Assembly (NCBI RefSeq): GCF_045037415.1
Contig: NZ_CP173438.1
Origin: Escherichia coli
GTDB lineage: Bacteria > Pseudomonadota > Gammaproteobacteria > Enterobacterales > Enterobacteriaceae
Reading direction: 5' to 3' (one strand)
DNA length: 64,000 bases
The notes under the pieces are model-generated. The model saw only the letters and a program-made list of their open reading frames with translations, ran no database searches and had not been told where the DNA came from. Positions 44,756 to 58,004 of this stretch are shown piece after piece (the stretch's first letter is position 1; each line of letters opens with the position of its first letter). The position numbers and the translations under genes were made by a program.

Positions 44756-45079
44756 TTACAGCAGCACCTCCAGCCCGTGTTTTTGCACAATGCTGAGCAG
44801 TTTTAATGAAATGCCATTGGGGCGTTTAGCGCCACTTTCCCATTTTTGTACAGTTGAAACGCTGGTATTGAGATAGTGAGCGAAGACGGGCTGACTCACT
44901 TTTAATTTTTCCCGCAGTGCTTTTATCTCAACAGGTTGTAAGTCTTGCACGCTGGTCAGGCAGGCTTTGTCAAAAGTACGCATCGTTTCGGCAGAAATAG
45001 CATCGACTCTGGACAATCCAGCCGCTGCGCTGTGAATAGCTTCAAATGCAGGACTTTTAAATTTAGTTTTTGCAGTCAT
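44756..45079 (-). CDS. HTH (XRE-like) antitoxin, HigA-like
   Basis: 107-aa ORF with a C-terminal HTH-like region (...VSQPVFAHYLNTSVSTVQKWESGAKRP...); its start overlaps the upstream toxin ORF by 17 nt. Confidence 0.65.
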   Translation of the reverse strand: MTAKTKFKSPAFEAIHSAAAGLSRVDAISAETMRTFDKACLTSVQDLQPVEIKALREKLKVSQPVFAHYLNTSVSTVQKWESGAKRPNGISLKLLSIVQKHGLEVLL

Positions 45080-45422
45080 AGCAGATCTCTGTCAGTTCTT
45101 TAGTGTTAATCATTGCTGTCAGTTGGGCTTTCGTCAGGAAGGCATAATGCTTTGCAAGTTCACGAAACCCAGCCAGTTCCTGACTATTAATGTTCGACAT
45201 ATCCTGTTTTGCATATAAAAACGTGTAAAACCAATTGCTTCCCCCTTTCGCCAGAATAATTGCACGCTCACGATTTCGGTGAAGGCGCTTTTTAAAAACG
45301 CCACCACCAAGTACATCAGCTTTACCTTGTTCCGTTTCTAAAATGGCCCGGCACAACTCTTCATCTGTTATTGCATGAGACCTGGCTTCCCTTGCAAACC
45401 ATTTGGTTTTAAACACGCGCAT
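45063..45422 (-). CDS. RelE/ParE-superfamily (HigB-like) toxin
   Basis: 119-aa basic ORF directly upstream of and overlapping the HTH antitoxin; toxin-first order is typical of HigB-HigA modules. Confidence 0.6.
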   Translation of the reverse strand: MRVFKTKWFAREARSHAITDEELCRAILETEQGKADVLGGGVFKKRLHRNRERAIILAKGGSNWFYTFLYAKQDMSNINSQELAGFRELAKHYAFLTKAQLTAMINTKELTEICYDCKN

Positions 45423-47395: not shown

Positions 47396-48214
47396 ATGAA
47401 ACTGACAACACATCATCTACGGGCGGGGGCCGCATTATTACTGGCAGGAGTTCTGCTGGCAGGTTGCGACCAGAGCAGTAGCGATGAAAAGCATATTAAA
47501 GTTGGCGTTATTAATGGCGCAGAACAAGATGTCGCGGAAGTCGCTAAAAAGGTAGCAAAAGAGAAATATGGCCTCGATGTTGAACTGGTAGGATTTAGCG
47601 GTTCGTTGCTACCGAACGATGCGACAAATCATGGCGAGCTTGATGCGAACGTCTTCCAGCATCGACCCTTTCTTGAACAAGATAATCAGGCGCATGGTTA
47701 TAAACTGGTAGCGGTGGGAAATACGTTTGTCTTCCCCATGGCGGGTTATTCCAAAAAAATCAAAACCGTGGCGCAAATAAAAGAAGGCGCGACAGTGGCG
47801 ATCCCCAACGACCCGACTAACCTTGGTCGTGCGCTTTTACTGCTGCAAAAAGAGAAGCTAATTACTCTGAAAGAGGGAAAAGGGTTATTACCTACCGCGT
47901 TGGATATAACCGATAATCCACGCCATTTGCAGATAATGGAGCTGGAAGGGGCACAGTTGCCACGTGTACTGGACGACCCGAAAGTGGATGTAGCGATTAT
48001 CAGCACCACTTACATCCAGCAAACAGGACTTTCTCCGGTTAACGACAGCGTATTTATTGAAGATAAAAATTCGCCGTATGTGAATATTCTGGTGGCACGG
48101 GAAGATAATAAGAATGCAGAAAACGTGAAGGAATTTCTGCAATCTTATCAATCACCCGAAGTCGCTAAAGCGGCAGAAACCATCTTTAACGGAGGCGCGG
48201 TGCCTGGCTGGTAA
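47396..48214 (+). CDS. nlpA: lipoprotein-28 (methionine-binding lipoprotein family)
   Basis: 272-aa ORF with lipobox LLAGC. Confidence 0.9.
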   Translation: MKLTTHHLRAGAALLLAGVLLAGCDQSSSDEKHIKVGVINGAEQDVAEVAKKVAKEKYGLDVELVGFSGSLLPNDATNHGELDANVFQHRPFLEQDNQAHGYKLVAVGNTFVFPMAGYSKKIKTVAQIKEGATVAIPNDPTNLGRALLLLQKEKLITLKEGKGLLPTALDITDNPRHLQIMELEGAQLPRVLDDPKVDVAIISTTYIQQTGLSPVNDSVFIEDKNSPYVNILVAREDNKNAENVKEFLQSYQSPEVAKAAETIFNGGAVPGW

Positions 48215-48217
48215 TTC

Positions 48218-49141
48218 TCACTCATGCCGCGCCGGACGATTTATTTTTCTGGCGCGGCGGCGGGAATCCATTGAAATCAAAATCACCGATGACAGAATCA
48301 GCAGCGTTCCCAGCCAGTCCGGCAATGTGAAGGTGATCCCCAGCAACAGCAAAGAGAGCAGTGCGCTACTTAATGGTTCTGCACAGCTTAAAATGCTGGC
48401 TTTTGGACCACCAATTAATTGTGCTCCTTTCAGGTACAGACTAAATGTCAGGGACGTACCAATGACCACCAAATAAAAAAACGCCAGAATCAAACTGCCG
48501 TTAACGACAAAGTTTGTCCCTTGTCTGGCATAAAAGGGCAGCAGGATCAGACCGCCAATGAGCATACTCCAGCCGACGACCGGTAACGTGCCATAGCGAG
48601 CAATCAGCGTTGAGGGATAGGTGGTATAGAATGCAGCAGCAAATGCCGAGGCAATGCCCCAGAATAACGCGGCAGGAGAGATCGATAATGACGTCGGATT
48701 ACCGTGTGTCACCAATAAAAAAGTCCCGATCAGCGATGTCAAAATAGCGCAAAAAACCAGGATGCCGGGGCGGGATTTACGCACCAGTGAGAACCAGGCG
48801 ACGATAATAGTCGGTGAGAGGAATTGCAGCACCGTTGCCGTGGCTGCGTTCGATTTTTCGATGGTTAGCAAAAAAGTGAGCTGTACGGTTAGCGCGCCAA
48901 CCACGGAAAAAATCAGTAGGCTAATGGCATCTTTGTGATTGTTAATAATAGAAAAGATTTTATCACCATGAACAAATGATAGCGTCAGCAGAATCAATCC
49001 GGCGAATATCAAACGCGTCATAGTCAAAAACTGCGACGACATCTGGCTTTGCTCCATGATGTATTGCGCGCAGACCCCTGAACTTCCCCACAACACGGCG
49101 GCAATCAGAACGTTCAGCATCCCCTTTCTGGTGGAACCCAT
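48218..49141 (-). CDS. yicL: EamA/DMT-family transporter YicL
   Basis: [30 protein letters not shown]...; start trimmed to the ATG at 49141. Confidence 0.85.
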
Positions 49142-49318
49142 TTTTCCCTCTGCATACTGTTTTGTCTTTTCATCAATATACGTTAAGGATACCACTACCG
49201 ATGACGGTGAGGGAGTAGAGTAATCAATCAGTTTTAGTGAATGGAGGAAATAATGACATATAACAATTATTCATATGGTGTTTAAAAAACCTCACTAAAA
49301 ACTCAATATGAAATTTAA

Positions 49319-49921
49319 TTATTTAATGTTCAATAACTCTATGGCTTTAGTATATTCATCAGGAATACCAATTATAAAACAAGGTGCGGTATCGGTAGGT
49401 AGATTTTCTTTGTTATCATCATCCAGAACAGAAATAGAAAACTGTCGTTCAGGTGTTGATGTTGTGGTTATTAAAATGGTTGGATTAGGAAGAGAAACAT
49501 ATGTTGTCTCATTTTTTAGTTTTATTCCTTTGATGTTTTCTTTGTTAATTTTATCAATCGTTTCAATAGAGAAAAAAGAATCATGCCCCATTCGCAGTTC
49601 AATTTTATTATCGTTTTCGAATAAATAAAGGGCATTATTGTTTTGAAACAGATTGAATATATTGTTAGCGCAAGTTTGAGTTGCTAGCCAGGATGCCGCT
49701 GGATGACTCAAATTAATATGTGTGCTAAAGACTTTGACGCGACTACTTCTGTTTTTCTCTTTACTTTCAATTAAATGCCTAGCGCTGTTGGCTGCTTTAC
49801 AAGTTCCATGCCCCACACGGCAAAAATAATCTCCTGAAAGGATACTTACAATCAGTATTACACCAATGACGACAGAAAAAATAGTTCCGATGAGTTTGAT
49901 GATGACAATCCTTGTGCAGTG
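49319..49921 (-). CDS. hypothetical AT-rich, Asn/Lys-rich protein with a possible N-terminal membrane anchor; start unclear (possible pseudogene)
   Basis: Track ORF starts at GTG 49816, but the frame stays open upstream through a hydrophobic segment IVIIKLIGTIFSVVIGVILIVSIL with no canonical start; an ATG at 49932-49934 is in another frame. Confidence 0.35.
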   Translation of the reverse strand, partial: HCTRIVIIKLIGTIFSVVIGVILIVSILSGDYFCRVGHGTCKAANSARHLIESKEKNRSSRVKVFSTHINLSHPAASWLATQTCANNIFNLFQNNNALYLFENDNKIELRMGHDSFFSIETIDKINKENIKGIKLKNETTYVSLPNPTILITTTSTPERQFSISVLDDDNKENLPTDTAPCFIIGIPDEYTKAIELLNIK

Positions 49922-50256
49922 TTATTTTCACCATGGATTATAATGTTATAGTGAAATTATTGCACCTGTAATTTTTCTTTGATTGTTTTAATCATCACAT
50001 TTACGCACTTCTTCATCTTTGTAGCAGGTAAAAGCCATATATGGATGGCTGGTGTCCGGTGCAGATAAAATGCAACTTATTCTTGATAGCTTGAAAAAAG
50101 AGAGGTTTTTTTGAGTGACGGTTGATGGTCGGTGGCAAGGAAGACGTTTTCGTACACTCGGCAAGAAAAATGAATCACTCTGTCATACTACCAGATACAT
50201 CAGCAGGGTCAGGTTGCTCAGAAATAAGCAGGATGGGGATCACTGAAGAGGCATTT

Positions 50257-50276
50257 TGGCGATCACAGGAGTCGAA
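50257..50276 (-). other. remnant of the selC tRNA 3' end (island attachment-site repeat)
   Basis: TGGCGATCACAGGAGTCGAA is the reverse complement of the selC 3' end TTCGACTCCTGTGATC[TTCC]GCCA with a 4-nt deletion; lies at the yicL-proximal edge of the island. Confidence 0.6.
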
Positions 50277-50411
50277 TATGAGTGTTAATGTTTTGATTTT
50301 AAATGATTAACCCGTGTTGGATAAATGAGTAACCCCCATAAGAACCCCCAAATGACTTTGCGTAAGGGAATGAGGCTAAAATACACAATCGAATCAATTA
50401 TTAGAGCTTTC

Positions 50412-51254
50412 TTATGAAGGTAACACTCCCGGATAGTGTTTCGCAATAATCTCATTCAGCCTGTCAACCAGTTCTGGTTTCCTGAACGTGATGTGTGCGG
50501 AGCCCTTCTTAAAGTATCTGATGCTGAACATCTCATCTTCGTAGTCCTCTTTACCTTGAACAGACTGGGTGTGGTCATCCAGATGAATGGTGATGTTTTC
50601 CCGGTTGTCGGGGATCGGTTTGCCGCTGAACAGGTGCAGCATTCTTTCCAGATCGGCAAGTCGATCGGCCTGTTGCCCGGTGATAAGATGAAACCCCCAT
50701 CTGTCCCACCTTACCAGGTTGTTGACGATAATTTTACTGCCAAACTTGCAGGGGCAATTGGTTTTGTAATTCCAGCTCAGTCCCCTGAAGACGTTGATCA
50801 CCCCCCGCTCAAACACTTCATCTTTGTTCTGGTGCAGTTGTTCAAATGTGCTCAGAATGTTCGCTTCACTGATTTCCGGAAAATTATCGTATTCCAGTGA
50901 TCGGTACCATGTATCACGGGCCTGTGCATCCATTAAGGAAAGCATCCCTGAACGTTGCATCAGGTCACGCCAGATTTCGCGGTCAAGATTCCGGGTAATG
51001 GCTTTCATTGCCGTTTCAGGTTTCTCCATGAGCCAGCATCCGCAGCGAAAATCCTGTTTCATGGCCCAGTCCGGGGCAGTTTTACCTCCGATGCTTTCCG
51101 TCAGCACCGAGATTTCAGCCAGTTGCCGGATAAGTGTGTCGATTTGCAGCAGTGTATTCTTTCGTACAGCCAGAATGTGGCAGATTGAGGTGGAACAGAT
51201 AACGTCCGTATGCCCGTTGACCACTTCCGGACGGGAGACTGTGATTTTAGACAT
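50412..51254 (-). CDS. DUF4942-family protein (terminal gene of CP4-like elements)
   Basis: 280-aa ORF; follows the CbtA/YeeW/DUF957 block as in CP4-type cryptic prophages (recalled). Confidence 0.65.
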   Translation of the reverse strand: MSKITVSRPEVVNGHTDVICSTSICHILAVRKNTLLQIDTLIRQLAEISVLTESIGGKTAPDWAMKQDFRCGCWLMEKPETAMKAITRNLDREIWRDLMQRSGMLSLMDAQARDTWYRSLEYDNFPEISEANILSTFEQLHQNKDEVFERGVINVFRGLSWNYKTNCPCKFGSKIIVNNLVRWDRWGFHLITGQQADRLADLERMLHLFSGKPIPDNRENITIHLDDHTQSVQGKEDYEDEMFSIRYFKKGSAHITFRKPELVDRLNEIIAKHYPGVLPS

Positions 51255-51350
51255 AATCGATATTCCTTTTTGCAGATAAATGAAAACGCCAGCCCTGTTC
51301 AGGCTGGTGTCAGTGGAATGAAGTCTGGTGAGTGAGATGATGAGTAAGAC

Positions 51351-51548
51351 TCACCGGTTCTGTTGCAGAAGCTGTAGTTGGCGCAGGGTACGGATATCTT
51401 CCCTGGCCTGTTCAATGCAGGGCAACAGTGCTGCTGAATCCGTTCTATCCTCATCGTTGTCGAAGATAATCCCGGATTCACAGTCGATATTGTCCTGCAG
51501 CCACGCAATCAGAATATCCAGCGCCGTTTCTGTCGTTAATGATTTCAT
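51351..51548 (-). CDS. DUF957-family small protein
   Basis: ORF MKSLTTETALDILIAWLQDNIDCESGIIFDNDEDRTD...; position in the CP4-like gene order. Confidence 0.55.
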   Translation of the reverse strand: MKSLTTETALDILIAWLQDNIDCESGIIFDNDEDRTDSAALLPCIEQAREDIRTLRQLQLLQQNR

Positions 51549-51565
51549 GTTGTGAATTTCCCTGA

Positions 51566-52054
51566 TTACCAGTCGAAAGTGGGCAGACCCGGCAGACATT
51601 CAGCGCAGGCATCCAGATGAATGAGACTGACGCCATAACGGCGAATGAGCGTGACGATCAGACGACGAAACGTTTTTGACAGGCCCAGGCGTTTAAGTCG
51701 CAGAACCGGGTACGACCACGCATCGGTACGTAACAGATATCCGCTACCGGTAAAATGAATCCATTCTGATTCGCCGAAGTCATTCGTCTGATGTGACAGC
51801 GAGTACAGCCAGGCGTTGTCCTTTGCCGTGATATGCGCGGTACTGCAGCGTATGCCGGTAAGGGCCGCAGATGGTGGCGTGCGCTCTGCTGATGTCCGGT
51901 CAGATTCATCAACAACACGAAGGGAGTAACCGTTATCGCAGACCACGTTAATCAGTTCAGCGAGAGTAACACCATCGACGTCAACGACAATGCGCCCCAT
52001 GTTCAGTGCCTGCACGTTAATGCTGTCGGCTTCCAGCGTCAGGGCCAGTTTCAT
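51566..52054 (-). CDS. YeeW-like protein (DUF5983)
   Basis: 162-aa ORF immediately downstream of and overlapping the CbtA-like toxin. Confidence 0.6.
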   Translation of the reverse strand: MKLALTLEADSINVQALNMGRIVVDVDGVTLAELINVVCDNGYSLRVVDESDRTSAERTPPSAALTGIRCSTAHITAKDNAWLYSLSHQTNDFGESEWIHFTGSGYLLRTDAWSYPVLRLKRLGLSKTFRRLIVTLIRRYGVSLIHLDACAECLPGLPTFDW

Positions 52055-52428
52055 TGTTTCGCCCCCGGATGTTTACCCAGGGTAATGTTATTTACCGTTC
52101 TGTAATTGTCGCGGGCCATCAGGCCGGTTGCCCGGCGGGCCCGGAGGATATCAATACTGTTTATTAACTGAGAACGGGTACAGGCGCTGAATCCCGGCTG
52201 GTCGGTACGTACCAGTGCGTATTTTTCAACGAGAAAGTTCACCGCATCGCACAGTGAAATGCCTGCCTCAATATGCTGCTCAATCACACGTTCATCAGCG
52301 AACGGTGTGTCATTCAGTGTGAGGCCGTAATGCTGGTCCAACAGTCGGGTGAGCAGTGTCTGCCAGATGGTGACGGGAGACGGGCAGCGCGATGCCTCCC
52401 GTACGTGTGTGTCAGGTAATGTTTTCAT
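52051..52428 (-). CDS. CbtA/YeeV-family toxin (type IV TA, cytoskeleton-targeting)
   Basis: ORF MKTLPDTHVREASRCPSPVTIWQTLLTRLLDQHYGLTLNDTPFADERVIEQHIEAGISLCDAV... recognised as the YeeV/YkfI/YpjF family. Confidence 0.8.
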   Translation of the reverse strand: MKTLPDTHVREASRCPSPVTIWQTLLTRLLDQHYGLTLNDTPFADERVIEQHIEAGISLCDAVNFLVEKYALVRTDQPGFSACTRSQLINSIDILRARRATGLMARDNYRTVNNITLGKHPGAKQ

Positions 52429-52474
52429 CTTAAGTTCTCTGTAACTGGTAGTGCTAAAGGTGAGATATTCGGGG

Positions 52475-52849
52475 TTATGAGGTGGTTGCGGGTGCCAGTG
52501 TCGGATAAACAGCCATATAAACGTAACCACAGCTGCCGAGGGTGTCGGCTTCGCAGGTCAGCCCTCTGGCATACAGCGTGACGGTATGCTGATGGCGGGG
52601 ATTCAGTTCACCGCTGGTGAGCATGAGTTCCAGTTGTTTCATCAGCAGCGGAAAGGCCTGGTCCAGATGATACGCATCCGCGTCGCTAAACTGCCCCCTG
52701 ATACCGGCGCGGTCGGCAAGGTAATGCAACTGATTGCCCTCCTGCACCAGACGTGCCCCGAAACAGGGCGTCACGGTGCAGGGGAGCCCCCACCAGGGGC
52801 GGTCGTTGTTGTTGTCGGGATGCGTTGTCCCGGGGTGTGTGTCTGACAC
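52475..52849 (-). CDS. CbeA/YeeU-family antitoxin
   Basis: ORF MSDTHPGTTHPDNNNDRPWWGLPCTVTPCFGARLVQEGNQLHYLADRAGIRG... recognised as the YeeU/YafW/YfjZ family; directly upstream of the toxin. Confidence 0.8.
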   Translation of the reverse strand: MSDTHPGTTHPDNNNDRPWWGLPCTVTPCFGARLVQEGNQLHYLADRAGIRGQFSDADAYHLDQAFPLLMKQLELMLTSGELNPRHQHTVTLYARGLTCEADTLGSCGYVYMAVYPTLAPATTS

Positions 52850-52928
52850 GATAAAATCCTCACAGAAAATCGGTTAAGAATGCTCCGATGGTGGCGATAA
52901 TTCGGCTCATCAGAATGCCCTTTCTGAT

Positions 52929-53150
52929 TCAGTTCAGGGTAACGCTCATCAGACGGACATACGGACCAAAACTGTCCTTACGGCGTTCAGCAAACACGGC
53001 CAGCACACCGGGAATATCCTGCACTTCACGGCCGGTATACGTATCCGTGCTACCGTGCCAGCGGTATTTACCGGTACAGAACGGAAAAAGACGGGATGCA
53101 GGATGCTGTTGGTGAATACGCATGGCTTCACCACGGGTGATGATTTTCAT
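52929..53150 (-). CDS. DUF987-family protein (YeeT-like)
   Basis: 73-aa ORF MKIITRGEAMRIHQQHPASRLFPFCTGKYRWHG... Confidence 0.7.
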   Translation of the reverse strand: MKIITRGEAMRIHQQHPASRLFPFCTGKYRWHGSTDTYTGREVQDIPGVLAVFAERRKDSFGPYVRLMSVTLN

Positions 53151-53212
53151 AATGGGATACCTCTGAAGACAGAAGATAAAAGTGAAAACAGGTGTGATGT
53201 GGTTGTGACGGG

Positions 53213-53689
53213 TTAAAGCAGACCGTGTTCGGCAAAGGAGAATACCTGGTTGCCACCGACTATCAGATGGTCCGGCACCCGGATATCCACCAGGGCCAGC
53301 GCCTGTACCAGACGTTCAGTGATAAGCCGGTCTGCCTTACTGGGGGTGACTTCACCGGACGGGTGATTGTGCGCCAGCACCACGGCAGCGGCATTGTGGT
53401 ACAGGGCACGTTTAATCACCTCCCGGGGATGGACTTCTGTGCGGTTGATGGTGCCTGTGAAGAGGGTTTCACCCGCAATCAGCTGATTCTGGTTGTTCAG
53501 ATACAGCACCCGGAACTCTTCCCGCTCCAGTCCTGCCATGTTCAGAATCAGCCATTCCCGTGCCGCATGCGTGGAGGTGAAGGCCACACCGGGTTCATGA
53601 AGATGGCGGTCCAGGGTTTTCAGGGCCCGCAGAATGAGACTGCGCTCTCTGGTTGTCATCTCTCCGGGCAGAAAGGAAAGTTGTTGCAT
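53213..53689 (-). CDS. RadC-like JAB-domain protein (YeeS/YkfG/YfjY family)
   Basis: JAMM-like motif HNHPSG; ORF MQQLSFLPGEM... Confidence 0.8.
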   Translation of the reverse strand: MQQLSFLPGEMTTRERSLILRALKTLDRHLHEPGVAFTSTHAAREWLILNMAGLEREEFRVLYLNNQNQLIAGETLFTGTINRTEVHPREVIKRALYHNAAAVVLAHNHPSGEVTPSKADRLITERLVQALALVDIRVPDHLIVGGNQVFSFAEHGLL

Positions 53690-53703
53690 TGTGCTTCTCC
53701 GGC

Positions 53704-54183
53704 TCAGTCGATGATGCGCATAATGGCGCTGCATTCAGGATGCTGCAGGGCGTAATCCCGCAGCCGGTAATAATGGACCGTCATGGCATAACACTCCGTA
53801 CGACAGGCATGATGGCTGTACGTCATCAGACAGGCGGCAATACCGGCGGCTTCCGGGCTCATTTCAGCGCGGTTACCGTTCATGGCATTGAACAGTACCC
53901 ATGTTTCGTCATCATCGTCATCCGGTTCGGGTGCCATAAATGCCCCGCCGTTGTTCAGGGTATACAGATTCCAGATACCACCGCAGTAGTCTTCACACAG
54001 ACGGTCCATCCAGCCGAAGACACGGGGCTCCAGGGTCACCCACTGTGGAATGAGGCCAAAATGCTGCGGCCAAAAGCTGATGCGCTGTTCATCAGGGACG
54101 AGGCTGGCAACCAACTGAGGCGGATTATTCTCTGGTGTTGTAGCTGAATAAATTGTGGGGGTATTCTGAGAAACGCTTTTCAT
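53704..54183 (-). CDS. antirestriction protein (YfjX/YafX-like)
   Basis: 159-aa acidic ORF with a DDDDDE stretch; position between the DUF932 and RadC-like genes. Confidence 0.65.
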   Translation of the reverse strand: MKSVSQNTPTIYSATTPENNPPQLVASLVPDEQRISFWPQHFGLIPQWVTLEPRVFGWMDRLCEDYCGGIWNLYTLNNGGAFMAPEPDDDDDETWVLFNAMNGNRAEMSPEAAGIAACLMTYSHHACRTECYAMTVHYYRLRDYALQHPECSAIMRIID

Positions 54184-54264
54184 GAGATAACTCCTTAAAT
54201 AACAAATAAAAGTGTGTTTTTCAGGAACGAAAGCTGAATGATTCCCTCACTCAGGGAAACGGCA

Positions 54265-55083
54265 TCAGCGCAGGCTCTCCAGCATCGTTTCTGCCATCAC
54301 CCACAATGCGCGGTTGAGTTTAATATCGGTGTCGATGCTGTGAATGGCCCGGGTATGGATACGTTTTCCTTTTGCACTGCGACCGGAAATCCCGCCTTTC
54401 AGCATATTCTCCTGGATGGTCTGATATGCGCTCCACAGGTCCTTACCGTAATCCTCCCGGCGTCGCGGCGTCAGAATGTCGGCGGTGGTGACGGGCTGAT
54501 GTTCGTCACCATAACGGTAAGTCAGTGCCGCCTGTGCCAGCGCCTGGCGTGCCGGTGGCGGCAGGACCAGCGACTGCATGGCATCACGCTTCTCCTCTAT
54601 CCGGTCAAACACGCCCACCACTTCGTAAGCCCCTTCAATGACTCTGTCCACCACATTTCCCCGGTGCGGAACACGCACTTCCCCCAGAGACTGGCCACAG
54701 ACGCACCCGTTCTGGCAGACGAACCTGAAGTAACCCGGCAGCATCTGATAGCTGGAGGTACCGTCATGAGAGTTGAGCAGAATAATTTCAGGGACATGTT
54801 CTCCGTTTATCTCTCCGGCCCGCCGCAGACGCAGCATGTGTTTGGTGTATTCCCGGCGGCTCTGGTCGCGCACACGGGGCTGGCAGGCGAAGAACGGCTG
54901 AAAGCCTTCCCGCTGCAGATTTTCCAGGACGGTAATGGTGGGAATGTACGCATACCGTTCACTGCGGGAGGTGTGCCGGTCTTCTCCAAAAATACTCGGG
55001 ACGTGGTACATCAGTTCTTCGCGTGTCAGTGGGCGCTCCCGACGGATCTGATTTACATGACCAAAACGACTGGCTAATTGCAT
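54265..55083 (-). CDS. DUF932-family protein (YfjQ/YafZ-like)
   Basis: 272-aa ORF; family assignment from recalled similarity and CP4-like gene order. Confidence 0.6.
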   Translation of the reverse strand: MQLASRFGHVNQIRRERPLTREELMYHVPSIFGEDRHTSRSERYAYIPTITVLENLQREGFQPFFACQPRVRDQSRREYTKHMLRLRRAGEINGEHVPEIILLNSHDGTSSYQMLPGYFRFVCQNGCVCGQSLGEVRVPHRGNVVDRVIEGAYEVVGVFDRIEEKRDAMQSLVLPPPARQALAQAALTYRYGDEHQPVTTADILTPRRREDYGKDLWSAYQTIQENMLKGGISGRSAKGKRIHTRAIHSIDTDIKLNRALWVMAETMLESLR

Positions 55084-55172
55084 ACTTTGCTCCTTATGAA
55101 TGAATTAGCGGTATAAACGAAAAAGCCGCGTCTCCCGGAGAAGACGCGGCCTGATGGATGAAATGAAGACGT

Positions 55173-55406
55173 TTATTGCCTGAGAATTCCCTCACTGGCG
55201 AGATACGAATTTAGCTGTTTTCCGGCATCAGGTTCAAAATTCCAGCACCGCCAGCGTAGCTGCCCTTCGGCATTGCGGATAACCAGCCGGAAATGCGTTC
55301 CCTGGTCATCTTCAATAAGCACATTGCGGTAAGCTGTTGTGACGGCAACCGCCTGTTCGCGTGAGAAAGGGCCTTCGGGCAATAAAACAGGGTGGCAGTC
55401 CGACAT
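55173..55406 (-). CDS. DUF905-family small protein (YkfF-like)
   Basis: 77-aa [56 protein letters not shown]... Confidence 0.55.
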
Positions 55407-55411
55407 ACCGA

Positions 55412-56089
55412 CTATTTTCCGATAAATTCAACGCTGGCGCCGGTGGCATTACCGTCAGCACCAACCGTGACGGTCACTTTGTCGTACGCACGGTCTTCAG
55501 GATTGAATACTTCAAACTCAACCTTATTGCCTTTTACTTCGTAAGAGCCAAAATCAGCGGTTTCTGTTGTTTCCTCGTCATATTCCCGGGCGTATGCCTG
55601 CCGGGCAGCCTGCAGGACGGAATCTTTATTAATAGTGGTCGTCTGTTTCGGGGAAAAACCGGCAAGTGATGTGACAAATTTCGGACAGACCTTCAGCATA
55701 TCACCGCGGGTGAATTCCATTCGTACACCAAATGCCTGTAAAACGGACACATCACGCTCTGCTATGGAGTGAACGGCTTTTTTGACCATTTCCGGCGCCT
55801 GTCCGATTTCCACCTCAACAGCCCTGAATCCCGTCTGCTGATTACACATTTGTGATGTGGGGATCAGGTTACCGTTAATACTGATACGGCTGCCCAGGAG
55901 CGTCTGTACACCATTCGGGCATCCCTGCATCAGGCCAGTAATACCAATCGTGCCATTTTTCAGCATTACCAGCGCCTGACCATCTTCCGTCATGGTCTGA
56001 CACCAGCCGTTTTTGACAGCCCAGTTGCCGGCGGAGGCGGAGAATGATGCCACAGTGAACAGCAGGGGAAAAAGAGCTCTGGTATTCAT
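55412..56089 (-). CDS. predicted secreted protein with signal peptide
   Basis: ORF starting [20 protein letters not shown] (signal-peptide-like), then a Cys-containing mature domain; start trimmed from the track. Confidence 0.5.
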
Positions 56090-56236
56090 GACTGACCTCT
56101 GAAATGAACGTACGGTGTTATTGATAATGATGGAAGGTATGCAGTGACTGTTCAGGGAATGACGTAGCCGTATATTTAGTTTTCTGTTCAACATATTGTC
56201 TCCATACCTGTCGGGACGGCTTTGGCAGGCCGGCGA

Positions 56237-56917
56237 TCACAGGTTAAAGGTGTTGATAAGTTTATGGATGAAAGAGAAATGTGGCAGGGCGGAGATAAAA
56301 CGCTCTTCAGCGACCAGACTGTGGATGTGGCCTCTCCGTTCAAACCGTTCTGATGTCAGGCTGACTGATTTGATATCTGCCAGAGGAAAGACCTGCAGTT
56401 TTCCCTTCTGTAACGCGATCAGATACCAGCTACCGCTGTAATAAATGAGCCGGCAGGGCTCCAGTGACGGATACCATCGCTCAGTCATCAGAGAGATGTG
56501 GATACACTGTCTTATTGCCAGGATGAGTTGCGAGAAACACTCGGGGAACGTTGCAGTGATATCCGGCGCCGGTAGCCAGATAAGGCAGGGAGAGGGCTCC
56601 TGGTTGTCGGTAAGACAGGTTATCAGTCGTCCGTTCCGGAGCGGAAGTATCCGTGCGATCCCGGTATTCTGTATAAAAGAAAGCATTTCAGGGATCGCAC
56701 CTGGGCTGCTCTGTCGTCTGAGACTGTACCGGCCATTTCTGTACTCTAAGTCCAGGTGAACCAGACGCTGATGAAAATCGCGCTGTAAGGTACGTTCTGT
56801 AACACCAAATTCATCTGACAGTGTTTTTAGTGACAGAGATTCTCCGGCCATCAGTCGGCTGATAATGAGTGATAAGCGAACCGCCAGGCGATCATGCCGG
56901 GAACGATTATCAGACAT
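56237..56917 (-). CDS. HTH plus WYL-domain transcriptional regulator (YfjR-like)
   Basis: N-terminal HTH-like region (LSLKTLSDEFGVTERTLQRD) and a C-terminal region resembling WYL-domain regulators. Confidence 0.6.
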   Translation of the reverse strand: MSDNRSRHDRLAVRLSLIISRLMAGESLSLKTLSDEFGVTERTLQRDFHQRLVHLDLEYRNGRYSLRRQSSPGAIPEMLSFIQNTGIARILPLRNGRLITCLTDNQEPSPCLIWLPAPDITATFPECFSQLILAIRQCIHISLMTERWYPSLEPCRLIYYSGSWYLIALQKGKLQVFPLADIKSVSLTSERFERRGHIHSLVAEERFISALPHFSFIHKLINTFNL

Positions 56918-57119
56918 AGATGTGCACTCCGTAAGAAAACATCTTTTATTTCATGATGTTATTATGCATCATGATGTTGAAAGGATGTGTCGCATCCGAA
57001 TAATCAGAAATAAAATGCAGCAGAAAAAATATTCCTTTAATTATCTGATTTTTAAGCAGGGTTTCATAAAAAGAAGAATGCTTGTTAATCCAGCGACACA
57101 TCCTGTCGGCGTGAGTGTG

Positions 57120-58004
57120 TCAGAACAGACGATCCCACAGTGTGACCAGCAAGTGGATAATGCGGTCCCGGGCCTTACGCAGAAGCTGTAACATCCAGGC
57201 CGGAAAGCTGAATTGGGCAACGGCAGCGTCAAAGCTTTTCCCGATGGCGTCACCAAAAGTTTGTTGTGCGTGTTTCCGGGCCTGTTCAGAGCGGTTTTCC
57301 CCCCGGATATGTGAATAAACTGCGCTGGTTGCCTGTGGTGGCAGTGCGTGGATCATCAGCGACACCAGTGCCGGAAGATTCCAGCCGACAGGTGCGGCAA
57401 CGGAGAGTACCGGAAATGATGAAGGGAACAGGGTTGCCACCCGGGCTGTTACTGTTGCCAGTGAGAGTTCCTGCTGACGGGACGGGCATTTTTCTGTGTC
57501 GTTCCATTCTTCAGCAGGAAACACGCGATCGGCATGGCTGAGAACAAACAGAAAACGCGAGGGATCTGCACCTTCATTCAGTAAAAACTGATGCATGGCA
57601 ATATCGGCAGCATACGCACGTTCATCAGCCCGCAGGATCCAGATAATCAGATCCAGTTCCGGCAGTAACTGACGATAAAGCTCCCGGTATTCCTGATCAT
57701 GCTGCGGTGTCTCACCAATGCCGGGCATATCGACCAGCGTCATTCTGCGTTCACCGAGCTGCAGGGTAAGACGATGAGCCTGGCGGGTGCAGCCGTTCAG
57801 GGGATGCGTGGCGCAGATACGGGACTGAAAAATGGCATTACACAGACTGCTTTTGCCGGTGCCGGATTTACCCATAATGCCAATTACGGGCTCGTAATGA
57901 ATAACACCGTGGAGATGTTCAAGGATTTTCTGGCGAATTTCTTCAGGAAGAAACGTCAGATATGATTTTACTTGTGCAGAGAGGGAAGAATGGCTGAATG
58001 ACAT
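57120..58004 (-). CDS. GTPase of the YfjP/YeeP/YkfA family
   Basis: P-loop GIMGKSGTGKSS and DxxG (DMPG) motifs; first gene of the minus-strand CP4-like block. Confidence 0.8.
   Translation of the reverse strand: MSFSHSSLSAQVKSYLTFLPEEIRQKILEHLHGVIHYEPVIGIMGKSGTGKSSLCNAIFQSRICATHPLNGCTRQAHRLTLQLGERRMTLVDMPGIGETPQHDQEYRELYRQLLPELDLIIWILRADERAYAADIAMHQFLLNEGADPSRFLFVLSHADRVFPAEEWNDTEKCPSRQQELSLATVTARVATLFPSSFPVLSVAAPVGWNLPALVSLMIHALPPQATSAVYSHIRGENRSEQARKHAQQTFGDAIGKSFDAAVAQFSFPAWMLQLLRKARDRIIHLLVTLWDRLF

Follow-up and report, generated by a model that had tools for sequence, protein, structure and literature searches.

The thirteen-gene arm

At positions 50412-58004 of a 64,000-nucleotide stretch of Escherichia coli DNA (contig NZ_CP173438.1; the whole stretch is called the window below) lies a run of 13 co-oriented open reading frames (ORFs) on the minus strand, the outermost ends of which fall exactly at these two positions and which includes a toxin-antitoxin (TA) pair of the CbtA/CbeA type. 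We refer to this run of genes as the arm. The ORFs of the window were listed, their products were concatenated with short linkers and scanned against Pfam, and additional scans were made against PADLOC, PHROGs and NCBIfam, the last of which was uninformative apart from RadC and generic GTPase matches. The gene order, from a GTPase to a DUF4942 gene, was exactly the one given in a preliminary description of this DNA, and Pfam or PADLOC backed the labels of 11 of the 13 genes, while that of an exported protein was based on its signal peptide and that of a DUF957 protein on its RefSeq name only.

Read in the direction of transcription (all coordinates of the arm are on the minus strand), the first gene encodes a GTPase of the YfjP/YkfA/YeeP type (57120-58004; MMR_HSR1, 7.5e-14) that shares 34-35% identity with YfjP and YkfA over 283-289 amino acids (aa). 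It is followed by the gene of a YfjR-like transcriptional regulator with helix-turn-helix and WYL domains (56237-56917), for which the Pfam matches to HTH_11 and WYL were both weak, the PADLOC match to WYL had an E-value of 2.6e-18 and the identity to K-12 YfjR was 43% over the full length. The third gene (55412-56089) encodes a 225-aa protein whose Sec signal peptide could be read directly from the sequence and which had no family match in Pfam, NCBIfam, PHROGs or PADLOC. Its counterparts in other E. coli islands are 98-100% identical, and a 61% identical protein is encoded at the same position in Klebsiella islands; for this latter reason we rejected the possibility that it is variable cargo, and the gene is a conserved backbone gene. 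Next come the genes of a YkfF-like DUF905 protein (55173-55406; DUF905, 2.5e-29; 65% identity to K-12 YkfF), a YfjQ/YafZ-like DUF932 protein (54265-55083; DUF932, 1.6e-48; 73% to both YfjQ and YafZ) and an antirestriction protein of the YfjX/YafX, PF03230 family (53704-54183; Antirestrict, 1.1e-35; 67-70% to K-12 LfgA/YfjX and YafX). The RadC-like JAB metalloprotease gene that follows (53213-53689; RadC, 1.9e-43; NCBIfam TIGR00608, 149.7 bits, above the cutoff) encodes a protein 97% identical to YeeS and 78% identical to YfjY/LfgB, for which protease activity has been reported (PMC10846083).

A YeeT-like DUF987 gene (52929-53150; DUF987, 2.2e-36; 95% to K-12 YeeT) precedes the genes of the CbeA/YeeU-family antitoxin (52475-52849; 124 aa, GTG start; CbeA_antitoxin, 8.2e-53) and of the CbtA-family toxin (52051-52428; 125 aa; CbtA_toxin, 2.1e-61, covering model positions 1-112 of 112). 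The stop codon of cbtA overlaps by 4 bp with the start of a gene for a full-length, 162-aa YeeW-like DUF5983 protein (51566-52054; DUF5983_N, 3.1e-30, and the DUF5983 C-terminal domain, 1.7e-20). The arm is completed by an ORF for a 65-aa protein (51351-51548) that had no Pfam match in the scan of the window proteins and is named DUF957 after the identical RefSeq protein WP_000839266.1, and by the DUF4942 gene (50412-51254; DUF4942, 2.8e-68), of which only the DUF4942 part matched PHROG 6263, "DNA methyltransferase" (1.3e-19), this domain being common to phage DNA methyltransferases.

All 13 genes are full length, and in the RefSeq annotation of the near-identical strain IPCEC48 (see below) each of them is an intact coding sequence and none a pseudogene. 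The designation of the element as "decayed" in the preliminary description was therefore not borne out for these genes; it is CP4-44 of K-12 that is the more eroded. Rfam, used with gathering thresholds, gave no match in 48000-64000, and promoter-like and terminator-like elements occurred at the level of shuffled sequence (7 vs 8.1 and 10 vs 7.7, respectively), so that no operon map is claimed. Only one terminator-like hairpin stood out (55123-55152, minus strand), with a 13-bp stem, eight G-C pairs and a T-rich tail. It lies between the DUF905 and DUF932 genes and, judged from its sequence, may divide the arm into two units of transcription.

The selC island and its boundaries

On its left side the arm is bordered by nepI, yicS, nlpA and yicL, i.e. 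the core neighbourhood of selC, and homology to the selC-setC-yicL region of K-12 breaks at 50276/50277, with island DNA starting at 50277. Directly before the break sits TGGCGATCACAGGAGTCGAA (50257-50276), a copy of the 3' end of the tRNA-Sec gene (selC) that forms the distal att repeat. It reads TGGCG and then, with GAAG missing, ATCACAGGAGTCGAA, and, at 20 bp, is what remains of the 24-bp selC repeat, which is complete in strain GON1437; a 16-mer of the distal copy is also found at the selC gene itself. The repeat is 135 bp away from the last stop codon of the arm; for selC islands, a direct repeat of selC, 24 bp long, has been described at the distal end (Saile et al., PMC6174562). The same 4-bp-deleted copy is fixed in a chromosomal lineage, some strains of which have a nearly empty site, carrying only rhuM at selC.

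Next to the repeat, at 49196-50256, the setC and yicT region is replaced by a 1.06-kb segment of 36% GC, which encodes a 165-aa orphan protein (ORF 49319-49816, minus strand) with no match in PADLOC or PHROGs. Of 5426 E. coli genomes, 1103 carry this replacement allele, among them strains with only the rhuM gene at selC. We thus rejected a deletion of setC by the island, since the replacement is a lineage allele that also occurs in strains without the island of the window.

A megablast search with 49000-64000 against complete E. coli genomes returned full-length matches in strains IPCEC48 and IPCEC42. The window and IPCEC48 differ at three places in 15 kb: a synonymous change at 51686, a change at 54879 in the DUF932 protein (P69 in the window, T69 in IPCEC48) and an extra A at 62081. 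Outside this segment, an ISApl1 copy in yidE is present in IPCEC48 and absent from the window. The DNA to the right of the window end was read from IPCEC48, and its presence in the strain of the window is inferred from this near-identity. In IPCEC48, foreign DNA extends about 39 kb further to the right of the GTPase gene and ends with an integrase gene adjoining tRNA-Sec, after which yicJ and yicI follow. The integrase is an intact, 396-aa tyrosine integrase of the P4 type (39% identical to K-12 IntA over its full length, 386 aa, E-value 1e-97), encoded at about 93.4-94.6 kb in window-equivalent coordinates, i.e. about 29.4 kb to the right of the window. An AlpA-family gene (Phage_AlpA, 2.3e-08) is closer, about 4.7 kb past the end of the window. 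From the att repeat to selC the island measures 44.6 kb; the arm occupies its tRNA-distal end, opposite the integrase, and is transcribed away from both selC and the integrase. These findings led us to conclude that the 13 genes are very probably the intact tRNA-distal arm of a 44.6-kb selC island in an E. coli close to IPCEC48.

The preliminary description had noted that integrase, AlpA and YfjI-like genes are missing from the window and had proposed to look for the integrase beyond it. The first point was correct, as tblastn with K-12 IntA, IntF, AlpA and YfjI as well as with the integrase and AlpA-like protein of the island itself gave nothing at E ≤ 0.01 in the 64 kb, and the second led to the intact integrase beside tRNA-Sec in IPCEC48: the gene is absent from the window because the window ends short of it. 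A YfjI/DUF3987 homologue was not detected in the 45.9-kb island either (tblastn with K-12 YfjI, 1e-3).

The interior of the island is a mosaic of pieces of insertion sequences (IS) of the IS256, IS3, IS21, IS66, IS110 and IS1 families, together with a second integrase fragment and a second Gp2-type gene. Past the window, its cargo in IPCEC48 comprises genes of an H-NS-family protein, ProQ/FinO, MobI(A/C), RhuM, a complete type I restriction-modification (R-M) system, an orphan RelB/DinJ antitoxin, tia beside the integrase fragment, an eptX-like phosphoethanolamine transferase and a tetratricopeptide repeat protein. Two features of the island DNA inside the window may be added. A truncated transposase remnant of the IS256 family (IS1414-like; 62771-63363) contains, out of frame, a full-length, 38-aa ORF of the EAST1 heat-stable enterotoxin (astA; 62907-63023, plus strand), where RefSeq annotates a shorter EAST1-family coding sequence. 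At 61877-62756 (plus strand) the above-mentioned extra A at 62081 divides a restriction endonuclease gene of the Mrr_cat type between two frames; in IPCEC48 this gene is an intact 292-aa coding sequence.

Relatives in K-12, other E. coli and Klebsiella

Of 5426 complete E. coli genomes, 5023 contain parts of the module, at a median of three places per genome, and 1747 have a match with coverage of at least 80%. The module is thus nearly universal in E. coli, and it has already been described, as have the TA pair and its link to islands at selC, pheU and pheV. By description, the island resembles the selC, pheU and pheV islands of pathogenic E. coli (e.g. GIselC17584/1), with which it shares the insertion site selC, an integrase of the CP4 type and the 24-bp repeat of the tRNA 3' end. 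It also resembles, again by description, the 46-kb tia pathogenicity island at selC of enterotoxigenic E. coli H10407 (PMC7545054), being itself a 44.6-kb island at selC with tia. Its interior cargo differs from that of the pathogenic selC islands named here by the type I R-M system, RhuM, MobI and the IS remnant that contains astA. Inspection of the product names in the RefSeq annotation of the island revealed no leoA; PADLOC matches of the YfjP-like GTPase to LeoA/LeoBC are weak and do not make this gene leoA.

The proteins of the window were then compared by tblastn with the CP4-44, CP4-57 and CP4-6 elements of K-12. From RadC through CbtA the arm is closest to CP4-44, with amino acid identities of 97% (RadC), 95% (DUF987), 90% (CbeA) and 89% (CbtA). 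This agrees with the preliminary description, in which the arm was taken for a terminal module conserved among CP4-type elements and containing a type IV TA pair (CbtA/CbeA). Homologues of YeeS, YeeT and YeeW flank the pair in both elements (97%, 95% and 63% identity, respectively), whereas the spacer between antitoxin and toxin genes is 88 bp in CP4-44 (a figure also given in PMC5371832) and 46 bp in the window. Downstream of the pair CP4-44 is reduced: yeeW is a 64-aa stub as opposed to 162 aa in the window, the match covering residues 5-64 only, DUF957 survives in K-12 only as a 30-aa remnant downstream of yeeW (70% identical) and DUF4942 is missing from K-12, whereas the window has both genes. 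Furthermore, yeeP is pseudogenised in CP4-44, whereas the GTPase gene of the window is intact, and flu and yeeR of CP4-44 have no counterpart in the arm.

The distal modules of CP4-57 (yfjP...ypjF) and CP4-6 (ykfA...ykfI) contain the same families, namely GTPase, WYL, DUF905, DUF932, antirestriction, RadC, DUF987, antitoxin and toxin, at 34-82% amino acid identity to the window proteins (GTPase 34-35%, WYL 43%, DUF905 65%, antirestriction 67-70%, DUF932 73%). Both modules stand at the island end far from the integrase and are transcribed away from it, as in the window, and the polarity of CP4-57 relative to intA is equal to that found here. The synteny with the three K-12 elements that the preliminary description had expected was thus found for families and for order, with the sole exception of DUF932, whose gene follows that of the GTPase in K-12 but lies between the DUF905 and antirestriction genes in the window. 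K-12 also differs in having genes of lipoproteins or exported proteins (yfjS/yfjT, yafY/ykfB) where the window encodes the unrelated 225-aa exported protein, and in that yfjJ and yagK share the strand of the arm, whereas their homologue in the window is divergent from it. None of the K-12 copies is as complete as that of the window, which is a complete version of reference quality, the module being truncated in K-12.

The divergent homologue is encoded at 60818-61549 on the plus strand, i.e. on the strand opposite to the arm, as the preliminary description had stated. It belongs to the "inovirus Gp2 family" and is a putative replication-initiator-like protein (YagK_YfjJ_C, 7.8e-37; REP_ORF2-G2P, 1.1e-06; 31% identity to K-12 YagK and YfjJ). 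In strain 54214 (selC; 88-98% amino acid identity to the window proteins) and in strain 04-00955 (an island abutting cadC, on the pheU side) the same 13 genes are likewise followed by a plus-strand Gp2-family gene, 3-3.7 kb beyond the GTPase gene. Klebsiella islands have a shorter arm of seven genes (GTPase, 225-aa exported protein, DUF932, RadC, DUF987, CbeA and CbtA), which faces a divergent set made up of a 383-aa protein, AlpA and a REP_ORF2-G2P gene. Since it recurs in these islands, the divergent layout is the normal architecture of the island family, and the opposite strand of the YagK-like gene is no sign of rearrangement. The comparison is thus corrective on two counts, the "missing" integrase being an effect of the window end and the divergent Gp2/YagK-like gene being normal architecture. 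As for the earlier suggestion that the element is rearranged or composed of two decayed copies, it does not apply to the arm, whose integrase lies beyond the window and whose divergent Gp2 gene is recurrent; at the scale of the whole island it retains some truth, given the IS-riddled mosaic, the second integrase fragment and the second Gp2-type gene.

Between the GTPase and Gp2-type genes, and divergent from the former, the plus strand encodes an unannotated 376-aa protein (58189-59319; about 35% GC) with no family assignment and no match in Pfam, NCBIfam, PHROGs or PADLOC. Its homologues were found only in Enterobacteriaceae; a Cys/Cys/Cys/His pattern near the N-terminus is invariant among them, and they also have a LYNSFF motif in common at the C-terminus. 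An AlphaFold model (predicted local distance difference test score 72) had only generic helical bundles as structural matches. A 30% identical homologue in Klebsiella and an 18% identical, 407-aa protein in 04-00955 occupy the same position, and because this position is kept the gene looks like a conserved backbone gene and not like variable cargo. The GTPase-Gp2 slot was also considered as a variable defence hotspot, as CP4-57 of K-12 holds abpAB and rnlAB there; for the 376-aa gene this was largely rejected on the same ground. The 1.5 kb between the 376-aa and Gp2/YagK-like genes (59320-60817) are AT-rich (GC about 33-41%), contain no ORF of more than 67 aa and have no Rfam match; candidates for this segment are a decayed gene, a long leader or a silenced regulatory region.

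The toxin-antitoxin pair and interpretation of the arm

In the type IV mode of TA action, CbeA acts on the targets of the toxin and not on the toxin itself; toxins of the CbtA family cause growth arrest and lemon-shaped cells, and the antitoxin rescues these cells without binding the toxin. The pair of the window has the canonical order, with the antitoxin gene directly upstream of the toxin gene on the same strand. The antitoxin is a member of PF06154 (CbeA_antitoxin), about 88-90% identical to K-12 CbeA, and matches the structures 2inw (1e-76) and YeeU 2h28 (1.7e-73) of the Protein Data Bank. The toxin is a member of PF06755 (CbtA_toxin) and 89% identical to K-12 CbtA. K-12 CbtA blocks both division and elongation and binds its targets FtsZ and MreB independently of each other, the residues in question being F65 for FtsZ and R15 for MreB (PMC5624674). 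F65 is conserved in the toxin of the window, whereas residues 6-15 differ from those of K-12 CbtA, with R14-C15 in place of S14-R15; a Cys at position 15 is also present in YpjF and YkfI. The exchange R15C in K-12 CbtA abolishes the interaction with MreB, but natural C15 homologues differ from each other, as YpjF binds MreB and an interaction of YkfI with MreB was not detected (PMC5624674). The paralogues YkfI and YpjF are toxic, and their antitoxins YafW and YfjZ neutralise them (PMC5371832).

By analogy with the K-12 homologues, CbtA would block division and elongation through binding of FtsZ and MreB, CbeA would counteract it by stabilising the filaments instead of binding the toxin, and the pair could thereby provide the island with a growth-arrest or maintenance module. 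Family membership suggests that the antirestriction protein, the RadC-like JAB protease and the DUF932 and DUF4942 proteins might form an island-borne establishment or host-modulation set, which the WYL regulator and the GTPase may control or accompany.

Several points weigh against the view of the arm as a working part of a selC island with an active TA pair: (i) MreB targeting by the C15 variant of the toxin is uncertain, given this residue and the contrasting behaviour of YpjF and YkfI; (ii) the literature is unsettled on the physiological role of chromosomal CbtA/CbeA pairs; (iii) the 4-bp defect in the distal att copy may impair integrase-mediated excision; and (iv) the DUF905, DUF932, DUF987, DUF5983, DUF957 and DUF4942 proteins are assigned by family, and the exported protein by its signal peptide.

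Among the other explanations, we regard it as rather unlikely that the arm serves mainly as a cassette for entry or establishment (anti-defence), comparable to the leading regions of conjugative plasmids, with CbtA/CbeA as a minor passenger and not as the functional core. The antirestriction gene does stand beside those of RadC, DUF932 and DUF4942 (a methyltransferase-associated domain), the MobI(A/C) and ProQ/FinO genes elsewhere in the island hint at conjugative mobilisation, and the shorter Klebsiella arm retains DUF932 and RadC with the TA pair. On the other hand, no transfer origin or relaxase was identified, and the Klebsiella core keeps CbeA/CbtA while lacking the antirestriction, DUF4942, DUF905 and WYL genes, so that the TA pair is part of the most conserved core. 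A broader idea, which we put forward as speculation and consider unlikely to hold, is that the arm, the 376-aa Cys/His protein, the AlpA-like gene and the Gp2/YagK-like gene are the backbone of a distinct family of integrative elements of Enterobacteriaceae, neither prophage nor P4 satellite, in which the shared core (GTPase, exported protein, DUF932, RadC, DUF987, CbeA, CbtA and 376-aa protein) would act as one functional unit, e.g. in island establishment or control, and not as a TA pair with unrelated passengers.

That the island is a genuine P4-like satellite prophage ("cryptic P4"), the distal genes being satellite accessory genes, is suggested by the P4-type integrase at a tRNA gene, the AlpA-family regulator and the name "CP4" historically given to the K-12 relatives (PMC5371832). 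We nevertheless find it very unlikely, because K-12 YfjI (DUF3987, primase-associated) has no tblastn match in the island, the RefSeq product names list no primase/helicase, Psu, Sid, Delta or capsid-related gene (no profile search having been made for Psu, Sid and Delta) and the cargo consists of tia, an eptX-like gene, a type I R-M system, RhuM, MobI and IS elements. Least probable of all is a decayed, rearranged or doubled CP4-type remnant devoid of integrase, AlpA and YfjI, for which one could cite the lack of all three in the window, the strand of the YagK-like gene, the IS fragments and the second integrase fragment and Gp2-type gene of the interior, and the lack of a YfjI/DUF3987 homologue anywhere in the island, but against which speak 13 intact genes out of 13, an intact integrase and an AlpA-like gene beyond the window end, a Gp2 orientation conserved in independent islands and in Klebsiella, and the canonical orientation of the arm relative to selC and the integrase.

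Two further loci lie outside the island, in the left part of the window. An annotated RelE/ParE-family toxin gene and a helix-turn-helix antitoxin gene are located between yicN and nepI (44756-45416), and a DUF6708 pseudogene with an internal stop (34519-35379) lies in a patch of low GC content (39-43%) between ilvN and uhpA.

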